64,000 bases of DNA. It comes from Ruditapes philippinarum (Eukaryota). Of the stretch, positions 7,716-61,931 are shown one piece after another. Below the pieces are notes generated by a model that made no database searches, had not been told where the DNA came from, and saw only the letters and a list, made by a program, of their open reading frames with translations. The stretch is from positions 62,001 through 126,000 of the forward strand of contig NW_026856503.1 of NCBI RefSeq assembly GCF_026571515.1. The letters are read 5' to 3'. Made by a program: the position numbers and the translations under genes. How positions within the stretch are numbered: position 1 is the stretch's first letter; each line of letters starts with the position of its first letter.

Positions 7716-9977
7716 TCACTTATTTTTGAATTCAATCAGGTCGAGAATAGACCTGCTCACATGCTCCCATGACGTTTTAAGAACTGGTTCCCCATTTTCT
7801 ACGCTCCAAAGAATTCTAGCGTTTCTCTTGAACAAAGTTTTCATAACCGGAACCTTTTCCATGTCCCCTTCTTCTACATTTTCTATAAACATAAGAACAA
7901 TTGGTATCCCATGCCTATAAGCTTGGTTGACCTCATTACAGCTGTAATTGCTATTGATGAAGTTGTTAGATACGACAACTGTCATCACCGAAGCTTCCTC
8001 AATCAGTTTGTCTATTTCGTCATGAAGATGGAACCCAGCACGGAAATTGATATCTCCTGTACATACCAACTGTCTATCTATCCCCGTCATTAACTTCAGG
8101 TTTTCATCCAGTTGTTGAAGAATATTTGTTTCAACAAATTCCTCATCGTCACTAGAATACGATAAAAACACAGCGAATTTAAACCGACCCTCCCCTTCCC
8201 GTAAATTATTTATCACTTTGGCTGTTTTTCTTTCCTTTTGGCTTCTTTTGTATCGTTTGTACATTACCGATACGATAACAAGACCAAAAAGAAGCAATGT
8301 GGCAGTCGCGGTGCAGGAAGAAATAATAATAGTTCTCCTTTTACATATATTTTGTACCATTTCCAAAGTATTTTTATTTATGTCGTATTGTTTGTCATTT
8401 TCACCTACACATTTCAGTTGTTGTAATGTTATATTGATCAGACTTGTTGTCAAAATCCATTGAAGGGAAGCTTTTGCGTTACAGACTGAGCAGGAAATTG
8501 GATTCGACTGCAAAAGTACGTTTGTTTTAGACCCGCGAACGTTTCTGCTCCATGATATTGTATTTAAAAGATTAATCGAATCAAAATTCAAAACATGAAT
8601 GTTGTTATTTTTCAGATTAAGGATTTTAAGTTGGTCGAGGCCTTTTAAATCAAACGTTATCTGTTCTAATATATTATAGGAAAGATCAATTTCTTCAATC
8701 AATGGATTGTCCTTGAAGACGTCACGAGGAATACTATGGAAACCGTTTTCTGAAATCTGAACTGTCCTAAGATATTCTAGTTGTGAAAACAGGTTTTGGA
8801 ACATAGTTTCATTTTCAGTTACCATTTTAAACAGCTGATTTTTTGACAAGTCTACACTAGTTATGTCTCCAAGACAAGATAAGAATGTTGGATGTAAAAA
8901 CTCAAGTCCATTGTCAGATAGGTCAATCGTCTGAACTGATGAAAAACAAAATTTTTCACAAAGTATTCGAAAATCAAGTCTCTTTATTTTATTTTGCCCA
9001 AATCTAATGTTTTTTACAGAGAACATAGGGTCTTCATCTACTATCAATGTAAAATTATAGAGCCACAAAGAACCTATATGGTGTAGGATATCGCTTAGGT
9101 TTACAGTTTCAATTGCTAAGAAACTCCTTACGTCTTTTAAAGCTCGAATGTTAGAGAAAAATAATTTCTGGTTTCTGCTAACGAATCTTCCTGGAACAAG
9201 TGGTACTGCTTTCAAAGGTAGAGTTGTATGTGATGCATCAAGAATCTTAACGAGCTTAGTGTCATCGCGTGTTAGACTGTAGTCAGCCCAATCACTTATT
9301 ATCGCATATGAGGCATTAAGTTCTCTCAAATGCTTGAGTTTTTTAAAAGCCGCATCATAGTCGATAAAGAATAACTGCGATTTACTTACATCTATGGAAC
9401 TGATATTCCTCGGAAGAAGAGTGTCTACGAAGTCGCTATCAAATGCGAAACCACCTTCATACAAATTCCAGTTCGAAAGAATAATATTCTCCAATTTTGG
9501 TAAAATATCTAGCCCTTTTAAAGCCAATTTTAAACTGTCTATGGTCAATTTGATGCAACCACTTAGATCAAGAGTTTTAACATTTTGTAATCCAAAAAAG
9601 GTTTGTGGGAATAATTCCGGATACCATATATGAACATGTAATGCAAGCAGGTTTTGAAGATTGGCAAAGGACTTGTCACTTAATACGACTGGAGTACGAT
9701 CATTAGGATGATTACATGTATCTGTCACCTTCAAACTGTTTAATCCTCTCCAGCTGTCCGCAGCAAAGGTTGATGAATTAAATATCCATGCGCCAGGTGT
9801 CTCTATTTCTAAACGAAATTCTAAAATTCCTGTCGGGATATCTTTCGGTATATGATTACATGTTAAGATTGCGTTTGTATTTCGTCTACATGACAAAGTA
9901 CTCAGAGCTCCGTTTATTACAGAAACGTACAAAATCACAGTGAAAAATAAAGTTAAAACCATTTTCCTGTTTTGCAT
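7716..9977 (-). CDS. Toll-like receptor, copy 1 (single exon, 753 aa, intact)
   Basis: Signal peptide, multiple LxxLxLxxN LRRs, LRRCT (NPISCSVC...LKC...C), TM helix (IIISSCTATATLLLFGLVIVSVM), TIR with FAVFLSYS box 1, NFRAG BB loop, VVVSNNFINSNYSCNE and IPIVLM. Confidence 0.95.
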   Translation of the reverse strand: MQNRKMVLTLFFTVILYVSVINGALSTLSCRRNTNAILTCNHIPKDIPTGILEFRLEIETPGAWIFNSSTFAADSWRGLNSLKVTDTCNHPNDRTPVVLSDKSFANLQNLLALHVHIWYPELFPQTFFGLQNVKTLDLSGCIKLTIDSLKLALKGLDILPKLENIILSNWNLYEGGFAFDSDFVDTLLPRNISSIDVSKSQLFFIDYDAAFKKLKHLRELNASYAIISDWADYSLTRDDTKLVKILDASHTTLPLKAVPLVPGRFVSRNQKLFFSNIRALKDVRSFLAIETVNLSDILHHIGSLWLYNFTLIVDEDPMFSVKNIRFGQNKIKRLDFRILCEKFCFSSVQTIDLSDNGLEFLHPTFLSCLGDITSVDLSKNQLFKMVTENETMFQNLFSQLEYLRTVQISENGFHSIPRDVFKDNPLIEEIDLSYNILEQITFDLKGLDQLKILNLKNNNIHVLNFDSINLLNTISWSRNVRGSKTNVLLQSNPISCSVCNAKASLQWILTTSLINITLQQLKCVGENDKQYDINKNTLEMVQNICKRRTIIISSCTATATLLLFGLVIVSVMYKRYKRSQKERKTAKVINNLREGEGRFKFAVFLSYSSDDEEFVETNILQQLDENLKLMTGIDRQLVCTGDINFRAGFHLHDEIDKLIEEASVMTVVVSNNFINSNYSCNEVNQAYRHGIPIVLMFIENVEEGDMEKVPVMKTLFKRNARILWSVENGEPVLKTSWEHVSRSILDLIEFKNK

Positions 9978-11190
9978 GTTTTCAAGAAATGCGAAATTTC
10001 ACGATTGAATAAAATGTGGCCTAGCTTACAAGTATTTCAATAGTTTAAGATTTCGGTTTTCAATTACGTTTATAAATAAAAGTATATAAACAAGTTTACT
10101 TCCTGTTATCGTAAGTAAGGTACAAGTTAAAATATATAGGCGCCCAACTAAGGTACAGTCATTGGAAGAAACATAGGATAAAAAACACGGTATATTAATT
10201 CTGTTTATACTGTGTAAATGGTATAAATTACCTTGATTATATAAACATTTCAATTGAAAAGTAATTTGATCACCTACGTCATTTTCGAATTTTTTGTTTT
10301 GTTTTTGAGTTGGTTTTTTTTTGTTTGAATTAATGTCATTTCAAGGGCAGATAACTTATATATCAGTCTGACAAACCTTACCTTTACTAATACTAAAGTC
10401 CACACATTTCCATAAAGGATTAGTGTTCGCTTTATTCAGTTTAAAGACAACAAATAACGAGAGAAATCCATATACATATAGATAGTAAGTGTGAAAGCGG
10501 CATAATATAATGTATATAATAATAGCAAATAATAAATTGTTCTAGAGCACATTATCATTATTTATCATGTAAACGTTTAAACTAAATCACATATACCTTT
10601 TTCCTAATGGTATATATTCTGTTGTTTTATCAATATTTTATCAATATTAAAAGGGTTTGAGGTTTTTTTGACATGATATGACTGAAAATATTTTTTTCCA
10701 GATAAATGTACCATTTGATGTAGGTTTAGACCACTAATCTTTGTGCAAAATTTCAGATCATTCGCGCACCTTGTTTTTTCCAGAAAAAAAAAATTCTTAT
10801 TGCAAAAAATGACCCAAAATGAAAAGCGTTTAAACACTTTTCACTCAAATCGGGCTAAGAAAAGCATAAAAATACGATTTTTAATTTATTTCAAAGTATA
10901 TTTCTTAACTATCTTTGCATGTATTTCTGTTTAACGTGTCCCAGCACATTTATGTTAGAAATTAAAATGTAATGTTTTTAGGCTTTAAAACCTCAGTGGA
11001 GTCCTAAGTACTTTGAAAATATATTCTTTATAGATGTATCCACGGAGACTGAAAATTCTAAAATAAAACTGGATTAACTTAAAGAAACATCTTCCATTTT
11101 ATTAATAAATAAATATGTGGTTTCGTGTATTTTTGTTTCAATTTTTACTCATTTCGCACTTGTTAATTTACATTTACCTTTATGCTACTA

Positions 11191-18244: not shown

Positions 18245-20472
18245 TCACTTATTTTTGAATTCAATCAGGTCAAGTATAGACCTGCTCACATGCTCCCAAG
18301 ACGTTTTAAGAACTGGTTCCCCATTTTCTAAGCTCCAAAGAATTCTAGCGTTTCTCTTGAACAAAGTTTTCATAACCGGAACCTTTTCCATGTCCCCTTC
18401 TTCTACATCCCATGCCTATAAGCTTGGTTGACCTCACTACAACTGTAATTGCTATTGATGAAGTTGTTAGATACGACAACTGTCATCACCGAAGCTTCCT
18501 CTATCAGTTTGTCTATTTCGTCATGAAGATGGAACCCAGGACGAAAATTGAAATCTCCTGTACATACCAATTGTCTATCTATCCCCGTCATTAACTTCAA
18601 GTTTTCGTCCAGTTGTTGAAGAATATTTGTTTTAACAAATTCCTCGTCGTCACTAGAATACGATAAAAACAAAGCGAATTTAGACCGACCATCCCCTTCC
18701 CATAAATTATTTATCACTTTGGCTGTTTTTCTTTCCTTTTGGCTTCTTTTGTATCGTTTGTACATTACCGATACGATAACAAGACCCAAAAGAAGCAATG
18801 TGGCTGTCGCGGTGCAGGAAGAAATAATAATTGTTCTCCTTTTACATATATTTTGTACCATTTCCAAAGTATTTTTATTTATGTCGTATTGTTTGTCATT
18901 TTCACCTTCACATTTCAGTTGTTGTAATGTTATATTGATCAGACTTGTTGTCAAAATCCATTGAAGGGAAGCTTTTGCGTTACAGACTGAGCAGGAAATT
19001 GGATTCGACTGCAAAAGTACGTTTGTTTTAGACTCGCGAACGTTTCTGCTCCATGATATTGTATTTAAAAGATTAATCGAATCAAAATTCAAAACATGAA
19101 TGTTGTTATTTTTCAGATTAAGGATTTTAAGTTTATCGAGGCTTCTTAAATCAAAGTTTATCTGTTCTAATATATTATAGGAAAGATCAATTTCTTCAAT
19201 CAATGGATTGTCCTTGAAGACGTCACGAGGAATACTATGGAAACCGTTTTCTGAAATCCGAACTATCCTAAGATATTCTAGTTGTGAAAACAGGTTTTGG
19301 AACATAGATTCATTTTCAGTTACCATTTTAAACAGCTGATTTTTTGACAAGTCTACACTAGTTATGTTTCCAAGACAAGATAAGATTGTTGGATGTAAAA
19401 ACTCAAGTCCATTGCCAGATAGGTCAATCGTCTGAACTGATGAAAAACAAAATTGTTCACAAAATATTCGAACATCAAGTCTCTTTATTTTATTTTGCCC
19501 AAGTCTAATGTTTTTTACAGATAACATAGGGTCTTCATCTACTATCAATGTAGAATTATAGAGCCACAAAGAGCCTATATGGTGTAGGACATCGCTTAGG
19601 TTTACAGTTTCAATTGCTAAGAAACTCCTTAGGTCTTTCAAAGCTCGACTGTTAGAGAAAAATAATTTCTGGTTTCTGCTTACGAATCTTCCTGGAACAA
19701 ATGGTACTGCTTTCAAAGGTAAAGTTGTATGTGATACATCAAGAATCTTAACGAGCTTAGTGTCATCGCGTGTTAGACTGTAGTCAGCCCAATCACTTAT
19801 TATCGCATATGAGGCATTAACTTCTCTCAAATGCTTGAGTTTTTTAAAAACCTCATTCCAGTCGATAAAGTACAGCTGCGATTTACTTACATCTATGGAA
19901 CTGATCTTCCTCGGAAGAAGAGTGTCTACGAAGTCGCTATCAAATGCGAAACCACCTTCATACAAATTCCAGTTCGAAAGAATAATATTCTCCAATTTTG
20001 GTAAAATATCTAGCCCTTTTAAAGCCAATTTTAAACTGTCTATGTTCAATTTGATGCAACCACTTAGATCAAGGGTTTTAACATTTTGTAATCCAAAAAA
20101 AGTTTGTGGGAATAATTCCGGATACCATATATGAACATGTAATGCAAGCAGGTTTTGAAGATTGGCAAAGGACTTGTCACTTAATACGACAGGAGTACGA
20201 TCATTAGGATGATTATCTGTCACCTTCAAACTGTTTAATCCTCTCCAGCTGTCCGCAGCAAAGGCTGATGAATTAAATATCCATGCGCCAGGTGTCTCTA
20301 TTTCTAAACGAAATTCTAAAATTCCTGTCGGGATATCTTTCGGTATATGATTACATGTTATGATTGCGTTTGTATTTTGTCTACATGACAAAGTACTCAG
20401 AGCTCCGTTTATTACAGAAACGTACAAAATCACAGTGAAAAATAAAGTTAAAACCATTTTCCTGTTTTGCAT
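18245..20472 (-). pseudogene. Toll-like receptor, copy 2: intact ectodomain and TM, TIR truncated by a 28-bp deletion (689-aa ORF ends at 18403)
   Basis: Very similar to copy 1; lacks TTTCTATAAACATAAGAACAATTGGTAT at ~18408, giving a premature stop; the ancestral C-terminus and stop (18245-18247) are still recognisable. Confidence 0.85.
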
Positions 20473-21330
20473 GCTTTCAAGAAACGCGAAATTTCACGAT
20501 TGAATAAAATGTGACCGAGCTTACAAGTATTTCAATAGTTTAAGATTTCAGTTTTCAATGAAGTCTATAAAGCACAATATTTAAACAAGTTTACTTCCTG
20601 TTATGGTAAGTAAGGTACAAGTTAAAATATATAGACTCCCAAGTAAGGTACATGTACAGTCATTGGAAGAAATATAGGATCAAAAGACACGGTACTGTAT
20701 AAATGATATAAACCACCTGATTAATTGATCGAATGAATGGAGAGATATCTATTAGAAATCGACAAATTTAAATCTTATTAATTATACAACTAAACTGAAT
20801 TTTAACTACTGAATTTCAAAATGGATGGCAATGTAATAATCGATTTTGAATATTTAAAGGTACATAACTCATATGTAGTTTAAGGTGGACACTACAGTTG
20901 CATATAGCCATACGACAGATCAGAAGTTTATGTAAATTTTGTATGATAATAGATGAATATATAACTGATAATATGAACATTTTAATTGAAAAGTATTTTG
21001 ATCACCTACCTCATTTTCGAGTTTTTTTTTTTGTTTTTGAGGTTTTTTTTCGTGTGCATTCATGTCATTTTAAGGGCAATCTGACAAACCTTACCTTTAT
21101 TATTGGTTTTATTCGTGGCTATAACACTAAAGTCCACACATTTCCATAAAGGATTAGTGTTTGCTTTATTCTGTATAAAGACAACAAATAACAAGGGAAA
21201 TCCATGTACATATAGATAGTAAGCGTGAAAGCGGCATAATATTTTGTATATAATAATAGCAAATAATAAATTGTTCTAGAGCACATTATCATTATTTATC
21301 ATGTAAACGTTTAAACTAAATCACATATAC

Positions 21331-39400: not shown

Positions 39401-42074
39401 TTTGTCTATGGCTGCAGGTAAAACATTTACAGTTCCCATTTAAATAAATGATACATCAATTTTTAAAGAGAACTACTTAAGGTAGAACGCGACACTTTGC
39501 GAACTTTCGAGTAGCGCCTTGAAAATTGGCATGCAAAAAGTTGATTATATTTCCGATAAGGTTCCGTTGATTTTATTTCAATAGTTTTAGCCAATTTTTG
39601 TACACACGGCGTCAAAGTTGACCATCAAAGCCCGTTTTTTAACATGACGTTGTTGCGTATCCTTGGCAACTGTTACGGGTATTTCAACGCCATTTGCGGA
39701 CAAAATATCCTAAATTCTACAGCATTCGACGGAAATTATTTTTTCCTTTAAGCTGATATAAAATTTATCGTTTTACGCCAAAAAATGTTTGAAAAATGGA
39801 AAGAAAACTGTTAATTTTGTGTAAAATTTGACGTTCAGTTTTTTCGGCTTTAAAGCGGCTTATTAAAAAATTCCTGAAATAAATTTTTGATTTTTTTGCC
39901 ACCAAATGCTAAGGACCACAATGGAAATAAGAGCTTGCTTGCTCTTTTTTGTGAATGTTGATGGTCAACTTTGACGCCGTGTGTACAAAAATTGGCTTAA
40001 ACTATTGAAATAAAATCAACGGAATTTAATCAGAAATATGGTCAACTGTTTGCATGCCAATTTTCAAGACGCTGCTCGAAAGTTCCCAAAGTGTCGCGTT
40101 CTACCTTAATAATTTTTGTTACGAAACTATTCATATGACGGAAAAAACTGGCTCAGTGGGTATGTTCTGCTATGTTTTTCTAAGTGAAAGGTATGAAAAG
40201 TTACCAATATTTTAACATGCATCAATAGATAAAAGATTTACCTTTCAAATAGTATATAATATTAAAGGATCAAATGTACATCCATTAAGTTTTATTTGAT
40301 ACAAAATGCCTATTTTTTCACTTTTTGATAGGCATGATTGATATTTCAATAGAGTATATAAGAGCTGCTTATCTCTGTTATCTATGTCTCTGCTTTAACC
40401 AATTACTGCATGAGCATTTTGTGAAAATGGCTGTTTTCATTGAAAAATCTCCCGTTACAAGTTCAAATTGCTATAAAACTATAAAAAATGCTTCAATACT
40501 AATCAGACTAACAACATGCTCAGTCTTACATTTCCTGTTACATGGCAACGAGGGGACATCTCAAAATTGCCAAAAATCACTATTTTGCGTTGATTTTTTT
40601 ATATTGATTTTGATCCTTTTTATTCTTTTTATAATATAGTGAGAAAATTTTGTTGCTTAGTTCCTTAGTTAGAGATTAAGAAGAATGTATATACATGTTT
40701 GTACATTTTAACAAAGTGACGAATGTTATAAGCGAAACATCGAGATTTTATTCTATTTAAGCAAAGCGGCTCATGTCTCTGTGACTGCGTTAGAAAAATG
40801 ACTGGATAAGTCTTATAATCAGATGACCTGGCTAGCTGGCCAATATGTTGATGTATACCTAATCGCCCCCTCCTCCATTTTCGATTCGCTTACGGAGTAC
40901 TTATTAACATTAATAATCTCTAAGCATTTAAAAAACATCAGATAAACCTTTGTGTTAAATTTTTTAAGGTCAAGACATTTATTCCAGCACCAGTCTTTTT
41001 GTTACTTATTGGGGTTGCATCGAAGATGACACATTGATCACTCCTTCGTGTTTTCGTAGAACCAGTCTTCCTCCAAGACGTCAATACAGTGTCAGAACGG
41101 ATAAAGAAATGTTTTATGCACAAACGCAGATCTCATGTATTATATTTACACTAAATATCTCGCGAATTCACACTTAGTTCTGAAGAAAGTTATGTAGCCT
41201 CGAGGCCAATTCCCCCCACCCGAGAATCTCTAACCCGAACGCGTCGTTCATCATGCTTCATGTTAATTGATAGTATCGTCTATGAGTCGGCAACATTATG
41301 CATTTTCACAGTCAAATATATCTTACTTTACGAATCTAGACTAACTTAAAGATTACACAAGCTTGCAGGCGAGTTTTTACTTCCGCTTTGAACAACTCTG
41401 TTTCTCAAACAATTTTTTCTTGCAATCTTTGAATCGCTTCTCTGCCAGATTTTGTTTTTCATTGAAAGGCTAAATTTTACTTAAGATACTTCACTTTAGT
41501 TTCTGTAATTCACTTTACATTTGCGAGATTCTTATTTCGCATCATGTATGCAGACTTCATTTGTTCTGATCCCCTTTCAAAGTTCCATTTTGTTAAGTTA
41601 CGCCCATCGTTTTCTCTTTTAGGGCACAGATATTTTTTCACCTGGATACCACACGCCGCTTTTCATGAAATGACACTAAAGTGTCACATTCCATGATCAC
41701 CGCCGTATGAACACATCTGCTCAAAATTTTTACCATTGCACGTAAAAAAGTTGAATACTGCTTAAGCTGGTGCCAGGGGACATGGACAGTAGCTTGCACT
41801 TTCCAGTACTGTCCATGAACAGACTCAATCAAACCGAACATGCTCAATCAAACCGAGCCTGCAACACTTTCAGTTTTTTTACGTTTTTAACTTACTTTAG
41901 GGATTATTATTTCTTTCTTATACCTCGTGACACTTCTCAACTCAGTTTGAAAAAAAAATTAATGTCAGATCTATCCAAATTAAAAAAGTGTACATTAATG
42001 AATTTTAAAACTTTAAAAACTAACAACTTACCATAACAAGCCACCAAGATCACTAGACAAATTATTGTCTTCAT
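33489..42074 (-). CDS. Paralog A: secreted KR-repeat precursor fused to an aKG-HExxH-like domain. Exons 42032-42074, 34225-37508, 33489-33670; ~1167 aa if four clustered insertions at ~36455-36610 are removed
   Basis: Exon 1 plus exon 2 give MKTIICLVILVACYDALA (signal peptide); phase-1 GT-AG introns; 17 x 37-aa units ending KR; HEFIH at 34364-34378, SPIRHELRD, FHASYV; exon 3 LVLFHARAGNW...VLNDSGRAML...RLM*. Confidence 0.85.
35246..37188 (-). repeat. Coding tandem array in paralog A: 17 x 111-bp units (SPEVMMYNAKDPQSSTMLFSDIFDTNRHEPLSMVTKR), 18 KR sites
   Basis: First-to-last KR distance 1937 = 17x111 + one 45-bp in-frame insertion + 5 nt of small insertions. Confidence 0.95.
37632..37704 (+). 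repeat. (GT)n/(GCGT)n microsatellite
   Basis: Direct inspection. Confidence 0.95.
39256..40392. mobile_element. Non-autonomous TIR element, CAGAG...CTCTG ends, 7-bp TSD CTTTAAC (P-element-like)
   Basis: TIR CAGAGACATAGATAACAGAGATA; CTTTAAC at 39249-39255 and 40393-40399. Confidence 0.8.
39481..40105. mobile_element. Nested MITE with ~150-bp TIRs, GG...CC ends and TTAA TSD (Kolobok-like)
   Basis: TTAA-GGTAGAACGCGACACTTTG ... CAAAGTGTCGCGTTCTACC-TTAA. Confidence 0.85.
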
Positions 42075-42128
42075 TCCTCTTTAATACTGTAAAGGTCAGT
42101 GAATGAATAATGTGCTCATTGATGGTTC

Positions 42129-42135
42129 TTATATA
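42129..42135 (-). promoter_or_regulatory. TATA box of paralog A
   Basis: TATATAA ~55 nt upstream of the exon-1 ATG; same position in paralog B. Confidence 0.65.
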
Positions 42136-46181: not shown

Positions 46182-49100
46182 TCACATAAGACGAATAACA
46201 AATAAGAAATCTTCCATGGCTTGTAACATGGCTCTTCCCGAATCATTCAGTACGCCCACTTCATTATCTAACATAGTAAGACCTTCTACAGATGCTCTCA
46301 ATGGTTCAGCAAGTTTAACTGCTTTCTCCCAGTTACCAGCTCGTGCATGGAAAAGAGCAACCCCTAAAATATCAAGAAACATCCACTTAATTGAGACATT
46401 AAAAAAGAAAAAACAAATGAAATTGTTAGTGACAAAGATTCTCTTTGCCTTGTTCATTTCTTTTTAAATATGAAGTGAAAGTTTGCCTGTGAAAACTTTC
46501 TATTTTTCCTTAGATATTAACTGCATTTTTACATGTAACGACAATATGAGACTTCTTCTCAAAACTTGTGTTCGTTGTTATTTTGTTCTTGATATTACTA
46601 CAAATCCACGTGTATTATTGCAAAACATGCATGTTTTATAAAACTATTCGAAGTCTATTTTTTACGAAATTTTAACATATTGAAATGTCCATAAATAAGG
46701 CTGGACCATTTGTAATTTAGGGTCGAACGCTATTCGTATTTCATCAACATGTCGCATGTTACATACTTAACTTCCAAGGTATTATAATGATATACCTACC
46801 TGTCGAAACATAAGAGGCATGAAAGGTTTTGTCAAAATCACGAAGTTCATGACGTATTGGTGAATAGACTTTTGCCATGGAGAGCAATCTGTAGTCAGAA
46901 AATGTTCCATGTACAAGGTCGGCAAGGAATAAAGATGTATGTATAAATTCATGGACTATTTGTTCGGCATAATGCGCCACTGTCTGTTCCTTATATGAAT
47001 TAGGATCTTGCCAGATAAGCCCGAGAGCAGAACTTATACTTCCACCAGCAAAACCCGGATGCTCTGCCTTGTAAAACGCTATGCATGATACAATTTGATG
47101 AATAACTTTGTATAGTTCTGGCATTGTGTCATTTATAAGTGACATCGCTGCTTCAACTTTCCCTAGTATATAAGCTTGTTCTTCTAGTGTATACAAATGA
47201 AGTCCCGCATCTACATATTCTCTGCTCATTTCTTGAAGACCAGAACAATTTAATGCATCGATCACAAGGGAATCATTAAAACTGTATACTATCTTATTGC
47301 TCTGAACAGGAATTTTTAGAGTTTGGAACTTTTCAAGAATTTCATAAAACATAAGCTTCTGTTTTTCTGGTGTTGCGACCAATCCGGAGAAACCAAGAAG
47401 ACCAAGTTTTTGATTCATGAAACCAATGTCGTAAGCAAAAGGCCAGAAGAGTTTTTCAAAGACATTGGATTTTGAAATTTCATGTATTACTGTTTCTTGA
47501 CTCAAAGCTGGATATTTTAGTTTAAAGTATTGTCGAGTTAAATCATCATGCCCAAAAATAGAGATAGTCTGTTTCCATGTGCTAAAAAATTTGCTTTCTT
47601 CTAAAGGTGCCTCCTTGACAAGTGTATAAGTCATTTTGAACCACTGATTTATAAAACTTGAAAGCTCTATCACTTGATTGTTCTGGTTTGCCGATTCATT
47701 TCTCTCTATGGTAGTAACAGAGACATTGGTTCCAGCACAAATCATGATATGCCTAGGTTTTTTATCATTTAGCACGGCTTTGTATGCCATCACTTGTGGG
47801 GACCTTTTCTCGAACAACATTGACATTAGTTGATGATTAACTGTATCCAATGTGTTACTATATCGCATTACCGATGGCTGCATATCTTTTGCATTGTACA
47901 TCATCACTTGTGGTGACCTCTTTTTGTACATCATTGACATGGGTTGATGTTTATCTTCGTCCAGTGAATTACCGAACAGCATTCCCAAAGGCTGCATCTC
48001 TTTTGCATTATACATCATCACTTGTGGCGACCTTTTTCCGTACATCATTGACAAGGGTTGATGTTTATCTGAATCCAGTGAATTACTGTACAGCATTCCC
48101 AAAGGCTGCATCTCTTTTGCATTATACATCATCACTTGTGGCGACCTTTTTCCGTACATCATTGACAAGGGTTGATGTTTATCTGAATCCAGTGAATTAC
48201 TGTACAGCATTGCCGATGGCTGCATGTCTTTTGCATTATACATCATCACTTGTGGTGATCTTTTTCCGTACATCATTGACAATGGCTGAAGATTATCGAT
48301 ATCCAACGTGTTACTGTATAGCATTGATGATGGCTGCATATCTTTTGCATTGTACATCATCACTTGTGGTGACCTCTTTTTGTACATCATTGACATAGGT
48401 TGATGTTTCTCTGCATCAAATGAATTACTGTACAGCATTGCGGAAGGCTGCATATCTTTTGCATTGTACATCATCACTTGTGGCGACCTTTTTCCGTACA
48501 TCATTGACATGGGTTGATGTTTATCTGCATCCAATGAATTACTGTACAGCATTGCGGAAGGCTGCATATCTTTTGCATTATACATCATCACTTGTGGCGA
48601 CCTTTTTCCGTACATCATTGACAAGGGTTGATGTTTATCTGCATCCAATGAATTACTGTACAGCATTGCCGATGGCTGCATATCTTTTGCATTATACATC
48701 ATCACTTGTGGCGACCTTTTCCCGTACATCATTGACAATGGCTGAAGATTATCGATATCCAATTTGTTACTGTATAGCATTGATGATGGCTGCATATTTT
48801 TTGCATTATACATCATAACTTGTGGTGACCCTTTTCCATACATCATAGATAATGGCTGAAGATGATCGATATCCAATATGTTACTGTATAGCATTGCTGA
48901 TGGCTGCATATCTTTTGCATTATACATCATCACTTGTGGTGACCTCTTTCCGTACATCATTGATAAAGGCTGAAGGTTTTCAATATTTAATGTGTTACTA
49001 TATAGCATTGACGATGGCTGCATATCTTTTGCATTGTACATCATCACTTGTGGTGACCTTTTGCCAGTAATTTCTATTGGCAGAGTACCGGTGCCTAAAT

Positions 49101-51653
49101 TGTTCCTGTACATCATCGGTGACGGCTGCAGATCTTTTGCGTTGTACATCATTACTTGTGGTGGTTCTTTGCTGTACAACATTGACAGTGGCTCTAGATT
49201 TGTAGTTTCCAACTTGTTGCTGTACATCATGGTCATTGGTTCAACCTCTTTTAAAGTCATCATTACATTCCTTGGTGAATGTGAATTTGGACTCTTATTG
49301 TTTAATTTATTTCTGGCTTCATTCTGCTTTATTTTAAGATACTCAGTAAAGTCTCTGTCTTTTTTCTCCTCTAGTTTCCTCAACGATATGAAGCTGTCTT
49401 CGTCAAGATTTCGTACATTCCACCGGAAGTTGCTTTCTTTATACCTGTTCACATTTTCTATCAACTGCTTTTCTAATGGCACTGGTAACAAAGCCAAAGC
49501 ATCTGAAATATTTAAATAGATACAAGACATCATAAACATGTGTAGATGTTTTGAATTATTAAGTTAACTATTTCCTCTGCTAATATACAATGCAATCTTT
49601 TATTTTCAGTTAGTTTTATTTTATTTTCAATTGCCGGCATAAGAAAATTATTAGTTATTTCTAACGAATATTTAATAGTTACAACTGACAATTCACGGGT
49701 TTCTTAGATTTCCTATTTTATGTGTATTTAAGTAATTAGTACTGCTACTTTAATCATTTTCTGTAGTTATTTTCAGGAAATACAATTAAATGTTAAAAGA
49801 AAAGAATTGAATCGTAACCATACAAAAGCTTTGATTAGTAGGAAATTGTCTAAATTTATTTGCTATGCAACATGAGCTAGAGATAAAACTATTAACTTCC
49901 AACTAATTTCAAACACTAATAATTATATATATATATATTTTTTATTTCATGACTGTGAAGTTATGTATGGAATATTACTTTTCTCGCATTTAGATTGTTT
50001 TTTCCCCCATTGGTTATATGTTATTAATTTGTGTACACGCCATTATAGTTTTTAGCAATAGACATGTTTGTGCCTTAATAAAATTTTGAAATAAAAATAT
50101 TGAAGTGAAAAAGTGTAGTAAGAGGATTCGCTCAAAGAAACGTATTATTAAATTTTTGAGAGTATTAAAACAAAATTTATATATAGATCCTTATCACTTA
50201 TATAATGCGAAAACCGTTAAAGTGGATTGGTCTACAATGGAAATATTTTGAACAAATTTTTATGAAAAACAACAAAAGAAAATATTAAATTATTTTTGAA
50301 AAAAAAAATGTTGATATTATTTTAAGTGATGTAGTATGAACATTTGTATGAATAATATTTTGTTCTAGGATCAAGCCTAACGGAAAAGAATGTGCCTAGC
50401 CAGATGATGGAACTGGCAAATAAGAATTTAAATATACGACGCTCTCCCTACTAAGAGGAAGATATTTTACGAATGACAAGAACACTCTTCTAGAAATCCG
50501 TATAATTTATTTAGCAGAATAATATTCCAAAAATCTAAACAGTTGTTTGAACACTTTTAAAACATCTCATCGTATAACATTCTATGTTTTAAATACTAAA
50601 TTGAGCCGTGTCACGGCAAAACCAACATAATGCGTTTGCGACCAGCATGGATCCAGACCAGCCTGCGCATCCGCGCAGTCTGATCAGGATCCATTCTGTT
50701 CGCTATCAGTTTCTCTACTTGTAATAGAGTTGGTAAGCGAACACCATGGATCCTGATCAGACTGCGCGGATGCGCAGGCTGGTCTAGATCCATGCTGGTC
50801 GCAAACCCATTATGTTGGTTATGTCGTGACACGGCTCAATTGTTGGCGTTAGTTATAATTGACGTTTTAATTCCCAAAATGTTTGTCATAAGATAAAGTA
50901 TTTGATACTGAAGTATTTAAGTTTTCTTAATAAATGAATGTCAATGATAATAACTAAGCTAGTCGCTATTTAACTATTATTGTTGCTATTTGTAAGCGCA
51001 CAGTTATTTTTAACTAGGCACTTTTAAAGGGTAACGTAAATTATAGCATCGAAATAAATTTAAATATAGTCATACGTGTCCACTCATTACAAAAAACTAA
51101 ATGAGCCGCGTCACGACAAACCAACATAATGGGTTTGCGACCAGCATGGATCTAGACCAGCCTGCGCATCCGCGCAGTCTGATCAGGATCCATGATGTTC
51201 GCTATCAGTTTCTCTACTTGTAATAGAGTTGGTAAGCGAACAGCATGGATCCGCGGATGCGCAGGCTGGTCTGGATCCATGCTGGTCGCAAACGCATTAT
51301 GTTGGTTTTGTCGTGACACGGCTCAAATGATTCGTTTTCACCTTTAATTGAGAAGATGGCCGTCTTGTGATATTGAAATAACTGAATTCTTTATTGATTT
51401 TAAAAAGTAATGTCAGATTTGTTGTTTTTGCCGTTGTAACTTTTAACTTTGTGAATTAATGAAATGACTGTTTGGAAGAATTAAAAAAAAGGGAAAAAAG
51501 AAACCAGTAAATAAAAAATAAATCGATAAAAAACAACAAAAATTAAAAACACAAACAAAATTAAAATAAAAAATAAATCAATAAAAAAAAACAAGTAACA
51601 AACAACTTACCATTACATGCCACTACGATCACTATACAAACTATTGTCTTCAT
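46182..51653 (-). CDS. Paralog B: secreted GKR/KR-repeat precursor fused to an aKG-HExxH-like domain. Exons 51611-51653, 46800-49502, 46182-46363; 975 aa, intact
   Basis: MKTIVCIVIVVACNDALA signal peptide; phase-1 GT-AG introns at the same positions as paralog A; CDS 43+2703+182 = 2928 nt open; 11 x 38-aa units; HEFIH at 46939-46953. Confidence 0.92.
47803..49062 (-). repeat. Coding tandem array in paralog B: 11 x 114-bp units (SPQVMMYNAKDMQPSAMLYSNSLDADKHQPLSMMYGKR)
   Basis: First-to-last KR distance 1254 = 11x114; degenerate units flank the array. Confidence 0.95.
50603..50837. mobile_element. GAGCC-MITE, AATT TSD (intron 1 of paralog B)
   Basis: Same family. Confidence 0.9.
51103..51324. 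mobile_element. GAGCC-MITE, AAAT TSD (intron 1 of paralog B)
   Basis: Same family. Confidence 0.9.
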
Positions 51654-51706
51654 CTCTTACTATTGTTGTTTACTTCAGTTATGAAAATACCCTTAAAGGA
51701 TGCTTC

Positions 51707-51713
51707 TTATATA
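51707..51713 (-). promoter_or_regulatory. TATA box of paralog B
   Basis: TATATAA ~54 nt upstream of the ATG; position conserved with paralog A. Confidence 0.65.
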
Positions 51714-56700: not shown

Positions 56701-59700
56701 AATTGGGGGTTACTTATTGTGACGACATGGAAAGGGTTAATGATTAAAAAATCACATTCAGATGCTCGTACATTGGTTATTTTTTCTAGGGTTTCATCTT
56801 GTGATGACAGAGAACCTGTCTATGATACAAAAGAAAAGAACATCAAGACACTCCGCAATCTGGTCTATACTCGGGGCCTACGCCATCTCGTACAAAGTAG
56901 ATAGTCTCGTGTTTCGATGCTCTTTCTATTACTGCTTAACTCTTAGCTTTAGCTTGTTGGCGGTTACAGAATTTACCCAAGACAACTTTCAGCCGGCATA
57001 GTCGTGCCGTTTAATCATGGCCCGCAGTGTTCGCTAAAAGATAGACAGGTCCATTTTAATATATATGTAATGAGATATATATGTAATGAAATATATATGT
57101 AATGAGATATATATGTAATGAGATATATATGTAATGAGATATATATGTAATGAGATTAAAAAAGTAAGACTAACTTGGGTAGATGAAATATCTCAATGCG
57201 TGTGTAATGATTCTAAGTATGTCTGAAATCTACATTTGTTATGATTTTATAACTAGCATTTATGATATTCTAATAATCGGTCGACAAACTGTATTTCTTC
57301 CTCTGAATTTTGTGATTTTTGTTCAGCTCGAAACAATTCGAGTGAGATACAGTCGGTTTATGATAAAGGTTATATGTAACTATTTTATTATTTATTTATA
57401 TGTAAATGAATTTAAAATTAAAGTACATGATGCAATTAGTAAATGATTATTATAATGTAAGGTAACTATATGAATAATTATTTATGAAAATTTAGGAAAT
57501 TTATCATATGCAAAAAAGAGCAAAATATTTTAGAAAATATAACGACCTGTAAGACTTTATCGCCCCTCTTGAAACTTGTTTTATCTAGATAAAGTTGCTG
57601 TTTAAGGCATATTTGGTATACTATAGCCTCCTATCCATTACAGTTGTAGTACGAACTTCAACATGATAAATGTGATTTACAATGCAACCAGAAGAAAATG
57701 AAAAAAGTCTTCTTTACTTATCCATGATAGCGACTCGCTTATTAAAACATTTCATGGGACTGTAATGTATGTGAGAAGTTAGCAGTGAACAGTGAGCTAA
57801 GCAAAAAGGCATTTCAATTTATATAGGGAAGGTAATGATCTGCTGTAATGCTCAGCTGTTTTGGGCATCTAGCAGGGCATTCCTAAATATAGTGTAAAAA
57901 TGCTCTGCTGCAATACTCAGCTGTCTTGGCAATCTAGCAGAGCATTCCTAGCTTTAGTGAAAAAAATGCTCTGCTGGAACGCTCAGCTGGCTAGGCAATC
58001 TAGCCGTGCATTACTAAATATAGTGTTAAAATGCTCTGCTGGAATGCTCAGCTGGCTAGCTAAGCTGGCTAGGCAATCTAGCAGGGCATTACTAAATATA
58101 GTGTAAAAAATGCTCTGCTGGAATGCTAAGCTGGCTAGGCAATCTAGCAGGACATTACTAAATATAGTGTTAAAATGCTCTGCTGGAATGCTCAGCTGGC
58201 TAGGCAATCTAGCAGGGCATTACTAAATACAGTGTAAAAATGCTCTGCTGGAATGCTAAGCTGGCTAGGCAATCTAGCAGGGCATTACTAAATATATTGA
58301 ACAAATGCTTTTCTGGAATGCTAAGCTGGCTAGGCAATCTAGCAGGACATTACTAAATATAGTGTAAAAATGCTCTGCTTGAATGCTAAGCTGGCTAGGC
58401 AATCTAGCAGGGCATTACTAAATATAGTGTAAAAATGCTCTGGTGGAATGCTAAGCTGCTAGGCAATCTAGCAGGGCATTACTAAATATAGTGTAAAAAT
58501 GCTCTGCTGGAATGCTAAGCTGGCTAGGCAATCGAGCAGGACATTACTAAATATAGTGTACAAATGCTATTCTGGAATGCTAAGCTGGCTAGGCAATCTA
58601 GCAGGGCATTACTAAATATAGTGTAAAAATGCTCTGCTGGAATGCTAAGCTGGCTAGGCAGTCGAGCAGGACATTACTAAATATAGTGTACAAATGCTAT
58701 TCTGGAATGCTAAGCTGGCTAGGCAATCTAGCAGGGCATTACTAAATATAGTGTAAAAATGCTCTGGTTGAATGCTAAGCTGCTAGGCAATCTAGCAGAG
58801 CATTAAGAAATATAGTGTAAAAATGCTCTGCTGAAATGCTAAGCTGGCTAGGCACTATAGCAGAGCATTCCTTAATATAGTGAAAAAATGCTCTGGTGGA
58901 ATGCTCAGCTGGCTAGGCAATCTAGCAGGGCATTACTAAATATGGTGTAAAAATGCTCTGGTGGAATGCTAAGCTGGCTAGGCAATCTAGCAAGGCATTC
59001 CGAAATATAGTTAAAAAATGCTCTGGTGGAATGCTCAGTTGGCAGACTGATTCTGAGTTCCAGGATTTATTGTTGCCAAAGTTTTATTGACATTTTCGAC
59101 TTCTAGGCAATTCTGAGGCACTCGCAGACTTTCAGGAATTTTTGGTGCAAATAGAAATAATGATATTTTTGACTTCTAAGGACCTTTAACAGACTATTTC
59201 ATTGTCCTGCGACTTTTTGAAGGACACTCGCAGACTTTCAGGAATTGTGGTGCCAATGCTGATATTGACAATTAAGACTTCTAAGGACCCTCAAGAGTCC
59301 ATTTTGGTCGTCTGCGACTGATTCTTGGACACTCGCAGACTTTCAGGAATGGTTGGTGCCAATGGAAATATTCATATTTTTGACTTCTAGGGACCTTTAA
59401 GAGTACATTTCATTGGCCTGCAGCGTATTGTTGGACACTCTCAGACTTTCAGGAAAGTTTGGTGCCAATAGAGATGATGGCAATTTTTACTTCTAGGGAC
59501 CCGCCAGAGTCCATTTTTATGGTCTGCGACTGAATCTGGGACATTCGCAGACTTTCAGGAATCTCTGGTGCCAATGGAGATAATGACATTTTTGACTTCT
59601 AACGACCCCCCAGAGTTCATTTCGCTGGTCTGCGACTGATTTTGGGACACTTGCAGACTTTCAGGTATTTTGATGCCAATGGAGATAATGACATTTCTGA

Positions 59701-61931
59701 CTTTTAGGGAACCGCCAAATTACATTTCTTGGGTCTGCGACTGATTCCTTGAGACTCGCAGACTTTCAGGATGTTTAGTGCCATTGCAGATCATGACTTT
59801 TTTACTTTTAAGGACCCTTAGTCATAAGCAGAGCATTTTTACCCTAAAATGTCATTATCTGCATTAGCACCAAAAATTCCTGAAAGTCTGCAAGTGCCCT
59901 ATAATCAGTCGCAGACCAACGAAAAAGACTCTGGGTGGTCAAAAATGTCATTAATTGTAATTATCTCTATTGGCACCAACAATTCCTGAAAGTCTGTGAC
60001 TGTCCAAGATTAAGTCGCAGACCAAAAAAATGGACCCTGGATGGTCCCTAGAAGTAAAAAATGTCATTATCTGCCTTGACATCAAAATTCCTGAAAGTCT
60101 GTGAGTGCCTCAGAATCAGTCGCAGACCAAAAAAATGGATTCAGAAAGGTCCAGTAAGTCAGAAATATCATTTTCTGCATTGACACCAAAATTCCTGAAA
60201 GTCTGCGAGTGACTCAGAATCAGTTCGCAGACCAACGAAATAGACTCAGGAGGGTCCTTTGAAGTAAAAATGTCATTATCTCCATTGGCATCGAACATTT
60301 CTGAAAGTCTGCGAGTGTTCCAGAAACATTCGCAGACCAACGAAATGGACTCTGGATGGTCCTAAAATTCACAAATGTCATTATCTGCATTAACACCAAA
60401 AATTCCTGAAAGTCTGCGATCGTCCCAGAATCAGTCAGAGACCAAAAGAAATAGACACTTGAGGGTCCCGTAGAAGTCAAAAATGTCATTATCTGCATTG
60501 GCACTAAAATATTTCAGAAAGTCTACGACAGCCAAATAATCTGTTTGCAGACCAACGAAATTATATACTTTATTTAAGAATGCCCTGCTAGTTTGCCTAG
60601 ACAGCTCAGCATTCCAGCAGAACATTTTTACACTAATTTTCAGAATGCCTTGCCGGATTGCCTAGCCAGCTGAGCATTTTTAACACTATATTTAGGAATG
60701 CCCTGCTAGATTGCTTAGCTAGCTGAGCATACCAGCACAGCATTTTTCGCACTATATTTTGGAACGCTCTGCTAGATTGCTTAGCCAGCTGAGCTTGCCA
60801 GCAGAGCATTTTTACACTATATTTAGGAATGCTCTGCTGGATTTTCTAGCCAGCTGAGCATTTTAAACACTATATTTAGGAATGCCCTTCTAGATTGCCT
60901 AGCCAGCTAAGCAACTCAGCAGAGCATTTTTACACTATTTTTGGAATGTCCCGTTAGATGCTTAGCCAGCTGAGCATAAACAGCTAAGCATTTTTACACT
61001 ATATTTAGGAATGCCCTGCTAGATTGCCTAGCCAGCTGAGCATACGAGCAGATCATGTTTACACTATATTTTGGAATGCCCCGCTAGATTGCTTACCAAG
61101 CTGAACATAACAGCAGAGCATTTTTACACTATATTTTGAAATGTCCCGATAGATTTCTTAGCCTGCTGAGCATAACAGCAGAGCATTTTTACACTATATT
61201 TTGGAATGCCCCGCTAGATTGCTTAGCCAGCTGAGCATAACAGCAGAGCATTTTTACACTATATTTTGGAATGCCCGCTAGATTGCTTAGCCAGCTGAGC
61301 ATAACAGCAGAGCATTTTACACTATTTTTTGGAATACCCCCGCTAGATTGCTTAGCCAGCTGAGCATAACAGCAGAGCTTTTTACACCCCTATTTTGGAA
61401 TGCCCGCTAGATTGCTTAGCCAGCTGAGTATAACAGCAGAGTTTTTTTTTACACTATATTTAGGAATGCCTGCTGGATTTCCTAGCAAGCTGAGCATACC
61501 AGCAGAGCATTTTTACGCTATATTTTGGAACGCCCCGCTAGATTGCCTAGCCAGCTGAGCATACCAGCAGAGCATTTTTTACACTATATTTAGTAAATGG
61601 CCTGCTAGATTGCTTACCCAGCTGAGCATACCAGCAAAGCATTTTCTACACTTTATTTTGGAATGCTCTGCTAGATTGCTTACCCAGCTGAGCATAACAG
61701 CAGATCATTGTTTTCCCTATATAAATCGTAATGCCTTTTTGCTTAGCTCACTGTTAACTGCTAACTTCTCACATACGACTGTAATTATGTTATGTTTTTG
61801 CCATTTACATAAGTTTGTACTTAGTGCAACTTTTATTTCTTACTGACACAATAACAAACATTTTTTTAATGTTTTTCAGTATCTTCACAATAGGCTCAAG
61901 AGGGTCAAAGAAAAAGGTGTTCACCGAGTAA
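53758..61931 (+). CDS. SLC46-family (PCFT/SLC46A3-like) MFS transporter, ~497 aa. Exons 53758-54958, 55410-55493, 56292-56448, 61880-61931 (last exon uncertain; alternative 56790-56904)
   Basis: MFS motif A GAYTDRFGRK, YAADIT...R, LPET, PLCW, PMIRSILSQM...QGAVFA; ~12 hydrophobic helices; N-terminal ENAPLI dileucine-type motif; GT-AG introns in phase. Confidence 0.85.
55799..56033. mobile_element. GAGCC-MITE, AATT TSD
   Basis: Same family. Confidence 0.9.
57059..57155 (+). repeat. 16-bp minisatellite (ATATATATGTAATGAG) x ~6
   Basis: Direct inspection. Confidence 0.9.
57767..61776. mobile_element. 4.0-kb Foldback-type element (MULE/FB-like) with satellite-built arms and 9-bp TSD
   Basis: GTATGTGAGAAGTTAGCAG... 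/ ...CTGCTAACTTCTCACATAC; GACTGTAAT at 57758-57766 and 61777-61785; each arm has a ~59-bp array then a ~60/120-bp array; centre ~59820-59850; no transposase. Confidence 0.92.

Follow-up and report, generated by a model that had tools for sequence, protein, structure and literature searches.

A clam gene that may unite a bacterial-type aKG-HExxH oxygenase with its own repeated peptide substrate

Bacterial aKG-HExxH oxygenases work on ribosomal precursors that carry a leader, as described in three sources (PMC12636437; PMC13060819; PMC12707348). The characterised members of the family hydroxylate Asp, His, Gln or Pro residues of RiPP precursors (PMC12636437; PMC13060819), and in PflC oxidative cleavage of the backbone is reported as well (PMC12636437). 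For animals, a 2019 review takes cone-snail peptides as its RiPP example and describes the biosynthesis as very hard to study, the genes being unclustered (PMC6514808). In the literature searched, which lay largely outside subscription journals, neither an animal aKG-HExxH gene nor an account of the bacterial precursor family described below was found.

The locus presented here lies in a 64,000-nucleotide stretch of the Ruditapes philippinarum genome, hereafter the window. It comprises two paralogous genes on the minus strand, copy B and copy A, located about 9 kb apart and flanked by TLR, LRR and MFS genes according to Pfam, which bears out the TLR, LRR and SLC46 neighbours named in the initial annotation. 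Copy B consists of three exons that together yield an open frame of 975 aa (Table 1). Along this chain, a predicted signal peptide is followed by a 13-residue leader motif, eleven 38-aa Met/Tyr repeats bounded by KR, and the enzyme domain. In the independent record P0011, the repeats and the domain likewise lie within one ORF. The signal-peptide exon and the TATA box previously proposed for the gene are both found, and the paralog is built alike, with an 8-mer identical to the TATA-like box of copy B situated 54 nt 5' of copy A. The domain delimited at the outset is real; its coordinates had excluded the leader and repeats of the same ORF.

Copy A, as assembled, contains four small insertions near 36458-36611, distributed over two adjacent repeat units and producing a net frameshift, which may reflect an assembly error or a real breakage. 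RefSeq LOC132746778 corresponds to the 3' part of this copy. Two genome searches, one using the domain and the other the leader region, returned no copies beyond A and B. Several other elements are visible in the window. Two short palindromic MITE-like element copies lie inside intron 1 of copy B (50604-50840 and 51095-51328). Two close TLR paralogs are present as single ORFs (7716-9998 and 18403-20493), the second of which stops early inside its TIR domain. At 57834-61722, tandem arrays with units of 65 bp and 105-106 bp are nested in one another; they are apparently mirror-arranged around about 59830 and look foldback-element-like.

Table 1 Features of the two paralogous genes, in positions of the window.
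Feature	Position	Strand	Remarks
TATA-like box TATATAAG, copy B	51706..51713	-	53 nt 5' of ATG; putative function
Copy B exon 1, hydrophobic, signal-peptide-like (predicted)	51611..51653	-	best 9-residue hydropathy 3.84; paralogous exon 42032-42074
Copy B intron 1 (predicted), 2108 nt, GT-AG, phase 1	49503..51610	-	yields the open 975-aa frame
Copy B exon 2	46800..49502	-	leader, repeats and the bulk of the enzyme in a single frame
Leader motif N-V-x-x-Y-x-x-x-N-F, residues 28-40	49426..49464	-	resembles the leader of bacterial precursors
Eleven 38-aa repeat units, putative core peptides	47803..49056	-	repeat count in the copy B translation
aKG-HExxH oxygenase domain, exon 2 part	46801..47652	-	TIGR04267 above cutoff
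HEFIH metal-binding motif, residues 865-869	46939..46953	-	H, E, H in 96/96 aligned rows
SPIRHELR..FHA segment, two Arg and third His	46801..46863	-	aligned to ChlH SPWREDLRP..LHA
Copy B intron 2, 436 nt, GT-AG	46364..46799	-	RNA contigs spliced across, 4/4 runs
Copy B exon 3, final 59 residues of the enzyme and stop	46182..46363	-	frame, and contigs across intron 2
Copy A exon 1, signal-peptide-like (predicted)	42032..42074	-	TATA-like box at 42128-42135
Copy A exon 2: leader, 37-aa KR repeats, enzyme	34225..37508	-	repeat array about 35214-37199
Copy A exon 3	33489..33670	-	paralog codon alignment; copy A letters in contigs

The window segment 46801-47700 matches the aKG-HExxH profile TIGR04267 at 54.9 bits against a cutoff of 40 (E 1e-14), in line with the similarity to bacterial HExxH proteins claimed earlier. 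The copy A protein reaches 63.5 bits against the same cutoff, which is passed by all 11 animal proteins scanned. Pfam gives no match on the enzyme domain, and its matches on the repeats include no passing stretch. A PDB sequence search with the clam domain alone returned no match, and one with a 12-row animal profile a single weak, unrelated match. The 73-row family profile matches ChlH (8S5F) with E 2.7e-7, bringing the HExxH motif, the Arg segment and the third His into register; the clam HEFIH falls on HEHRH in ChlH, and FHA on LHA. The second Arg is as invariant as the metal-binding motif (96 of 96 aligned rows), and the third His occurs in 94 of the 96. HEFIH, SPIRHELR and the third His, the residues listed as retained in the initial annotation, are all present. 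The PWRxxxRP segment of ChlH has a role in 2-oxoglutarate binding. Both Arg of this segment are kept in the clam, and the P-W and the final P differ. This departure, recorded earlier as PIR..LRD in place of PWR..RP, is real but not animal-specific: in 76 non-animal rows, PW is not among the listed commonest residues, S-A-I is typical, and the first Arg is replaced by Leu in 36. Since the departure is common to the bacterial subfamily, it is no sign of decay.

The structural comparison points in the same direction. For P0002, the relative from Mya, a confident model with 334 residues at pLDDT >=90 retrieves 8S5F in Foldseek with E 3e-8 and superimposes on ChlH with Z 21.6 and rmsd 3.2 over 254 residues. 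The second-best fold match is SjiH (PDB 22OB) at Z 18.9, and the best zinc protease reaches Z 5.7. A clam model restricted to exon 2 is poor (pLDDT 54), and its top match is still 8S5F (E 0.04). In the AF2 model of P0002, the leader region has low confidence and most alignment rows lack it, making the model uninformative on docking; a complex prediction of the enzyme domain with Fe and a 60-residue leader segment, run without alignments, gave no answer either way (score 0.00). Judged from sequence, the domain is a member of the aKG-HExxH family, with predicted catalytic activity.

The intron reported to follow FHASYVST is joined across with GT-AG ends in contigs from four of four runs in four studies (one run recorded as RNA, three presumed RNA). 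Copy A's letter is carried by 12 of the 25 read differences checked, and both paralogs thus appear to be transcribed. The paralogous domains differ at 29 of 284 exon-2 residues, against an earlier count of ~28 of ~285, and at 33 of 343 when exon 3 is included. Across the enzyme (343 codons), dN and dS amount to 0.043 and 0.177, and the resulting dN/dS of 0.24 (bootstrap 0.15-0.37) supports the purifying selection proposed at first. The divergence of the introns is likewise seen, intron 2 measuring 436 nt in copy B and 554 nt in copy A with 71% identity over aligned columns, against 65% for shuffles. The gene has a GC of 0.37 and a GC3 of 0.28, and two neighbours have values of 0.35-0.39 and 0.33-0.38. 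Contamination, considered unlikely from the start, is ruled out by the host genes on the contig, the introns, the splicing and the GC, which is like that of the neighbours. The locus is, with near certainty, a real host-encoded aKG-HExxH gene.

Ten of the eleven copy B repeats end in KR and seven in Y-G-K-R. Most have three P-x-x-M-[ML]-Y motifs, which number 37 within the first 680 residues. Exact repeats ahead of the enzyme occur in 14 of 33 animal-type proteins (P0001-P0033), including those of Mya, Mercenaria and Haliotis. Their sequences vary widely; most are centred on Met with a hydrophobic residue two positions later, often with Asp, Asn or Glu four residues after the Met. The repeats of abalone P0022 mostly lack the Met motif, and KR sites are absent from those of P0024, P0026 and P0027. 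The other 19 proteins carry no exact array, some of them being fragments and six being complete; in the complete ones (P0002, P0015, P0016, P0020, P0021 and P0023) the leader is present. The repeat region lies nearest, though weakly (0.75-0.78), to Atlas clusters of arthropod neuropeptide precursors. Additional architectures are found among the relatives. In P0015, P0016 (Adineta), P0030 and P0161, an AlkB-like 2-oxoglutarate oxygenase stands between the leader and the HExxH domain, and P0030 also has ~36 Met-centred repeats, so that a single chain holds an array together with two oxygenases. Mya arenaria has five family proteins with different repeat units (P0001, P0002, P0008, P0009 and P0012), whose nearby locus tags suggest a tandem cluster; in P0008 the HExxH is altered to NExxH.

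The leader connects the animal proteins with bacterial precursors. A leader profile built only from 16 bacterial precursors, after the motif was first spotted by eye, picks residues 16-68, behind the predicted signal peptide, in every one of the 14 complete N-termini from animals. Of 25 animal proteins, 11 had shown no leader match and were left out, as they were judged by eye to lack a true N-terminus. The match has p <0.05 in 11 of these 14 and p 0.008 against shuffles in copy B, and for two TLR controls the score is close to zero. The animal proteins are related and so not independent, which makes the combined p of 2e-16 too favourable. Scored with the profile of bacterial cores, animal repeats do no better than shuffled sequences (p 0.27 for the clam unit; for 13 units together, Fisher p 0.10), and a first test of bacterial cores against animal repeats was also not significant. 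The case for homologous cores therefore comes from their position and a loosely defined Met motif, and the similarity between animal and bacterial cores is only suggestive.

A profile search gave 635 matches, 150 of them listed; among those listed, an animal block is followed by bacterial-type proteins, mostly of 270-420 aa. Against GTDB, the animal profile found no locus and the bacterial-relative profile found 25. Directly upstream of the bacterial enzymes lies a small ORF with a leader of the N-I-x-x-Y/F-x-x-x-H-F type followed by a core, such as QPLRMQIH, and an MFS exporter is often close to these precursor-enzyme loci. Some precursors are multi-core, with three cores in Ectobacillus and two in Cohnella. 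The leader pattern, tuned on the same loci, occurs <=700 nt upstream of the enzyme or fused to it at 22 of the 25 GTDB loci, one match being doubtful, versus 6 of 114 control stretches. In two distant loci that did not enter the leader profile, the cores read PLRMIAY and QPLNMIAY, whose closeness to the clam QPLSMMY is only suggestive at the level of sequence. In P0036 and P0037, the leader, repeated Met cores and the enzyme are already fused, P0037 having four Met cores. This precursor family is itself undescribed in the literature searched, and no characterised reaction was found in the accessible literature for the subfamily with an N-I-x-x-Y leader and a P-L-x-M core.

The bacterial cassette also occurs on mobile elements. 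Bacillus phage SPbetaL1 (L003:2783-3879) has a precursor-plus-HExxH pair with both members annotated as hypothetical, the one matching record among 50,697 phage records. Staphylococcus plasmids carry the cassette as well (L004:1859-3897 and L005:2821-3873), one of them with two tandem HExxH genes, and the S. warneri precursor is missing from the gene table of its record. Within the clade sister to the animal proteins, three proteobacterial loci encode, upstream of a leader-fused enzyme, a separate peptide containing AQYVWG motifs, an arrangement that makes a fused leader compatible with a substrate in trans. Small upstream ORFs with one to three such motifs are located at L028:3427-3693, L029:3128-3523 and L031:3410-3637. 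At L021 (4847-5902), a downstream gene matches VioB weakly (E 2e-7, well below the cutoff), and L028 and L029 have genes resembling it with no NCBIfam match. These loci possibly represent an undescribed Trp/Tyr peptide cluster.

In a FastTree phylogeny of 120 of 183 candidate rows, from which rows too short or without the motif were omitted, the animal rows form one clade (99). The same clade receives 100/100 in two IQ-TREE analyses of hand-picked subsets of 45 and 39 rows, with the long-branch row P0133 excluded. In all three trees, rooted on more distant bacterial rows or at the midpoint, the animal clade is nested among bacterial HExxH enzymes. Its sister group consists of leader-fused bacterial enzymes, with support of 99/97 in the 45-row tree and 93/94 in the 39-row tree, to which four more distant bacterial rows were added. 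This group contains Massilia, Pseudoduganella, Phenylobacterium, Azospirillum and P0037, each with the leader at the enzyme N-terminus, so the fusion of leader and enzyme probably predates the transfer. The named animal holders among the matches listed are six bivalves, two abalone and three bdelloid rotifers, that is, molluscs or bdelloids in 11 of 11 cases. Within animals, the tree roughly tracks host groups, the bivalve rows standing mostly together and separate from the abalone and rotifer rows in the 39-row tree. An intron at the intron-2 site is also present in metagenome contig L032 and, by read-through, in several other proteins, and is absent from the rotifer-like L033. The grouping of the rows is in line with a single old gain and later descent and loss, and a second transfer into bdelloids is possible. 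On the tree evidence, the transfer is old and not clam-specific.

The homolog search and maximum-likelihood tree called for by the initial annotation give molluscs and bdelloids as the animals among the named matches listed, in a clade nested within bacterial HExxH enzymes. The domesticated transfer that it suggested is upheld by the host-encoded, spliced gene under purifying selection, and a bacterial origin of the gene is very probable from these sequence comparisons. As an account of what moved, a transfer of the domain was incomplete: the precursor likely moved together with the enzyme.

Three other explanations bear on this reading. Early-eukaryote inheritance with losses, or a route via another eukaryote, would replace direct transfer from a bacterium to an animal, and we regard it as improbable. 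The long branch that leads to the animal clade (1.05-1.38 changes per column), the drop of sister-group support to 93/94 once distant rows are added, and a taxon survey based on the best 150 of 635 profile matches, a minority of them named, would accommodate it. Against it, the named animal-clade matches among those listed are all molluscs or bdelloid rotifers, the flanking clades contain named bacterial genomes from several phyla, and the rotifer-like and several other copies are continuous through the intron-2 site, which fits a later intron gain. A different doubt concerns the chemistry, in which the domain would be a zincin-type zinc protease hydrolysing its own polyprotein. The HExxH with its invariant Glu would suit a protease, and the family fold has been called zincin-reminiscent in a source that also reports backbone cleavage by PflC, though oxidatively (PMC12636437). 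The P0002 model, however, matches ChlH at Z 21.6 over 254 residues versus at most 5.7 for zinc proteases, the TIGR04267 cutoff is passed, the Arg and the third His are invariant, and host KR sites already offer a release route, which together make hydrolysis very improbable.

The strongest competitor, itself unlikely, accepts the transferred oxygenase and gives it other secreted host proteins as substrates; the repeats would then be separate neuropeptide-like or structural cargo, and the leader a structural or activating helix. It draws on the non-significant bacterial core profile on animal repeats, the six complete animal members without arrays, the weak neuropeptide-precursor neighbours of the repeat region, and the sister-clade bacteria in which the enzyme bears the leader and another kind of peptide is encoded upstream. 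It is opposed by the very different repeats that stand between leader and enzyme in several lineages, mostly Met-x-hydrophobic like the bacterial cores, and by the preserved bacterial order of leader, core and enzyme. A self-contained RiPP unit, anciently acquired from bacteria and with an enzyme oxidising its own repeats, is the likely reading, and because predicted signal peptide, leader, repeats and oxygenase occur in one protein, molluscs likely took over a whole peptide-modifying system and likely produce chemically altered peptides with it. The fuller proposal, a spiralian single-gene RiPP system in which a bacterial precursor-oxygenase cassette was rebuilt as a self-modifying prohormone releasing a new family of oxidised peptides, is favoured by a narrower measure.

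In this self-modifying scheme, the protein would enter the ER through its predicted signal peptide. The ER already hosts Fe/2-oxoglutarate enzymes such as prolyl hydroxylases. The leader, conserved across bacteria and animals, may bind and activate the enzyme domain, which, with Fe(II), 2-oxoglutarate and O2, would oxidise residues in or beside the P-x-x-M-x-hydrophobic cores in cis, by analogy with characterised family members. Should the enzyme act on the repeats, beta-hydroxylation would be the likeliest outcome, with about an even chance; Met-directed oxidation or a PflC-like oxidative backbone cleavage are the alternatives. The conserved core around Met may undergo a reaction that no HExxH enzyme has yet been seen to carry out. 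Prohormone convertases would then cut at KR and the Y-G-K-R units would be amidated, as in neuropeptide processing, releasing many modified peptides of ~35 residues. A role in secreted defence is a guess, prompted by RiPP precedent and the immune-gene neighbourhood.

Since substrate and enzyme are apparently encoded by one gene, the pathway is testable by expressing a single construct. If the proposal is true, a leader-enzyme recognition pair has outlived a cross-kingdom transfer whose age is at least that of the bivalve-gastropod split, and abundant modified peptides are predicted in farmed clams and abalone. The work also points to an uncharacterised bacterial precursor family, whose precursors of 30-90 residues are easy to assay.

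Compared with known systems, the clam gene is closest to the bacterial aKG-HExxH RiPP oxygenases (ChlH, PflC/PosC, PesO, BpmH/BipH; TIGR04267/IPR026337) in profile, fold, three His and Arg segment. Unlike them, it is an animal, intron-bearing gene with a predicted signal peptide and substrate-like repeats in the same chain, and no rSAM or MNIO partner is found within the 64-kb window. Animal neuropeptide prohormones and conopeptides share with it the signal peptide, the dibasic sites and the Gly-Lys-Arg amidation signals; unlike the clam gene, they have neither a modifying enzyme of their own nor a bacterial leader. The fungal dikaritin precursors (UstA, PhomA, GigA) resemble it in their signal peptide and in KR-flanked core repeats cut by Kex2-type proteases, and the borosins (OphA/OphMA) in the fusion of a eukaryotic precursor to its modifying enzyme, both as described in PMC6514808. 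Dikaritin oxidases, in contrast, are separate genes of an unrelated family, and borosins have a SAM methyltransferase, a C-terminal core and no KR-bounded array. In the plant fused burpitide cyclases (SkrBURP), repeated cores are joined to their own oxidative, autocatalytic enzyme, according to PMC12871766. That enzyme is a copper BURP domain of plants, whereas the clam has a predicted non-haem iron HExxH domain of probable bacterial origin. If the proposal holds, fused self-modifying RiPPs would extend from plants and fungi to animals.
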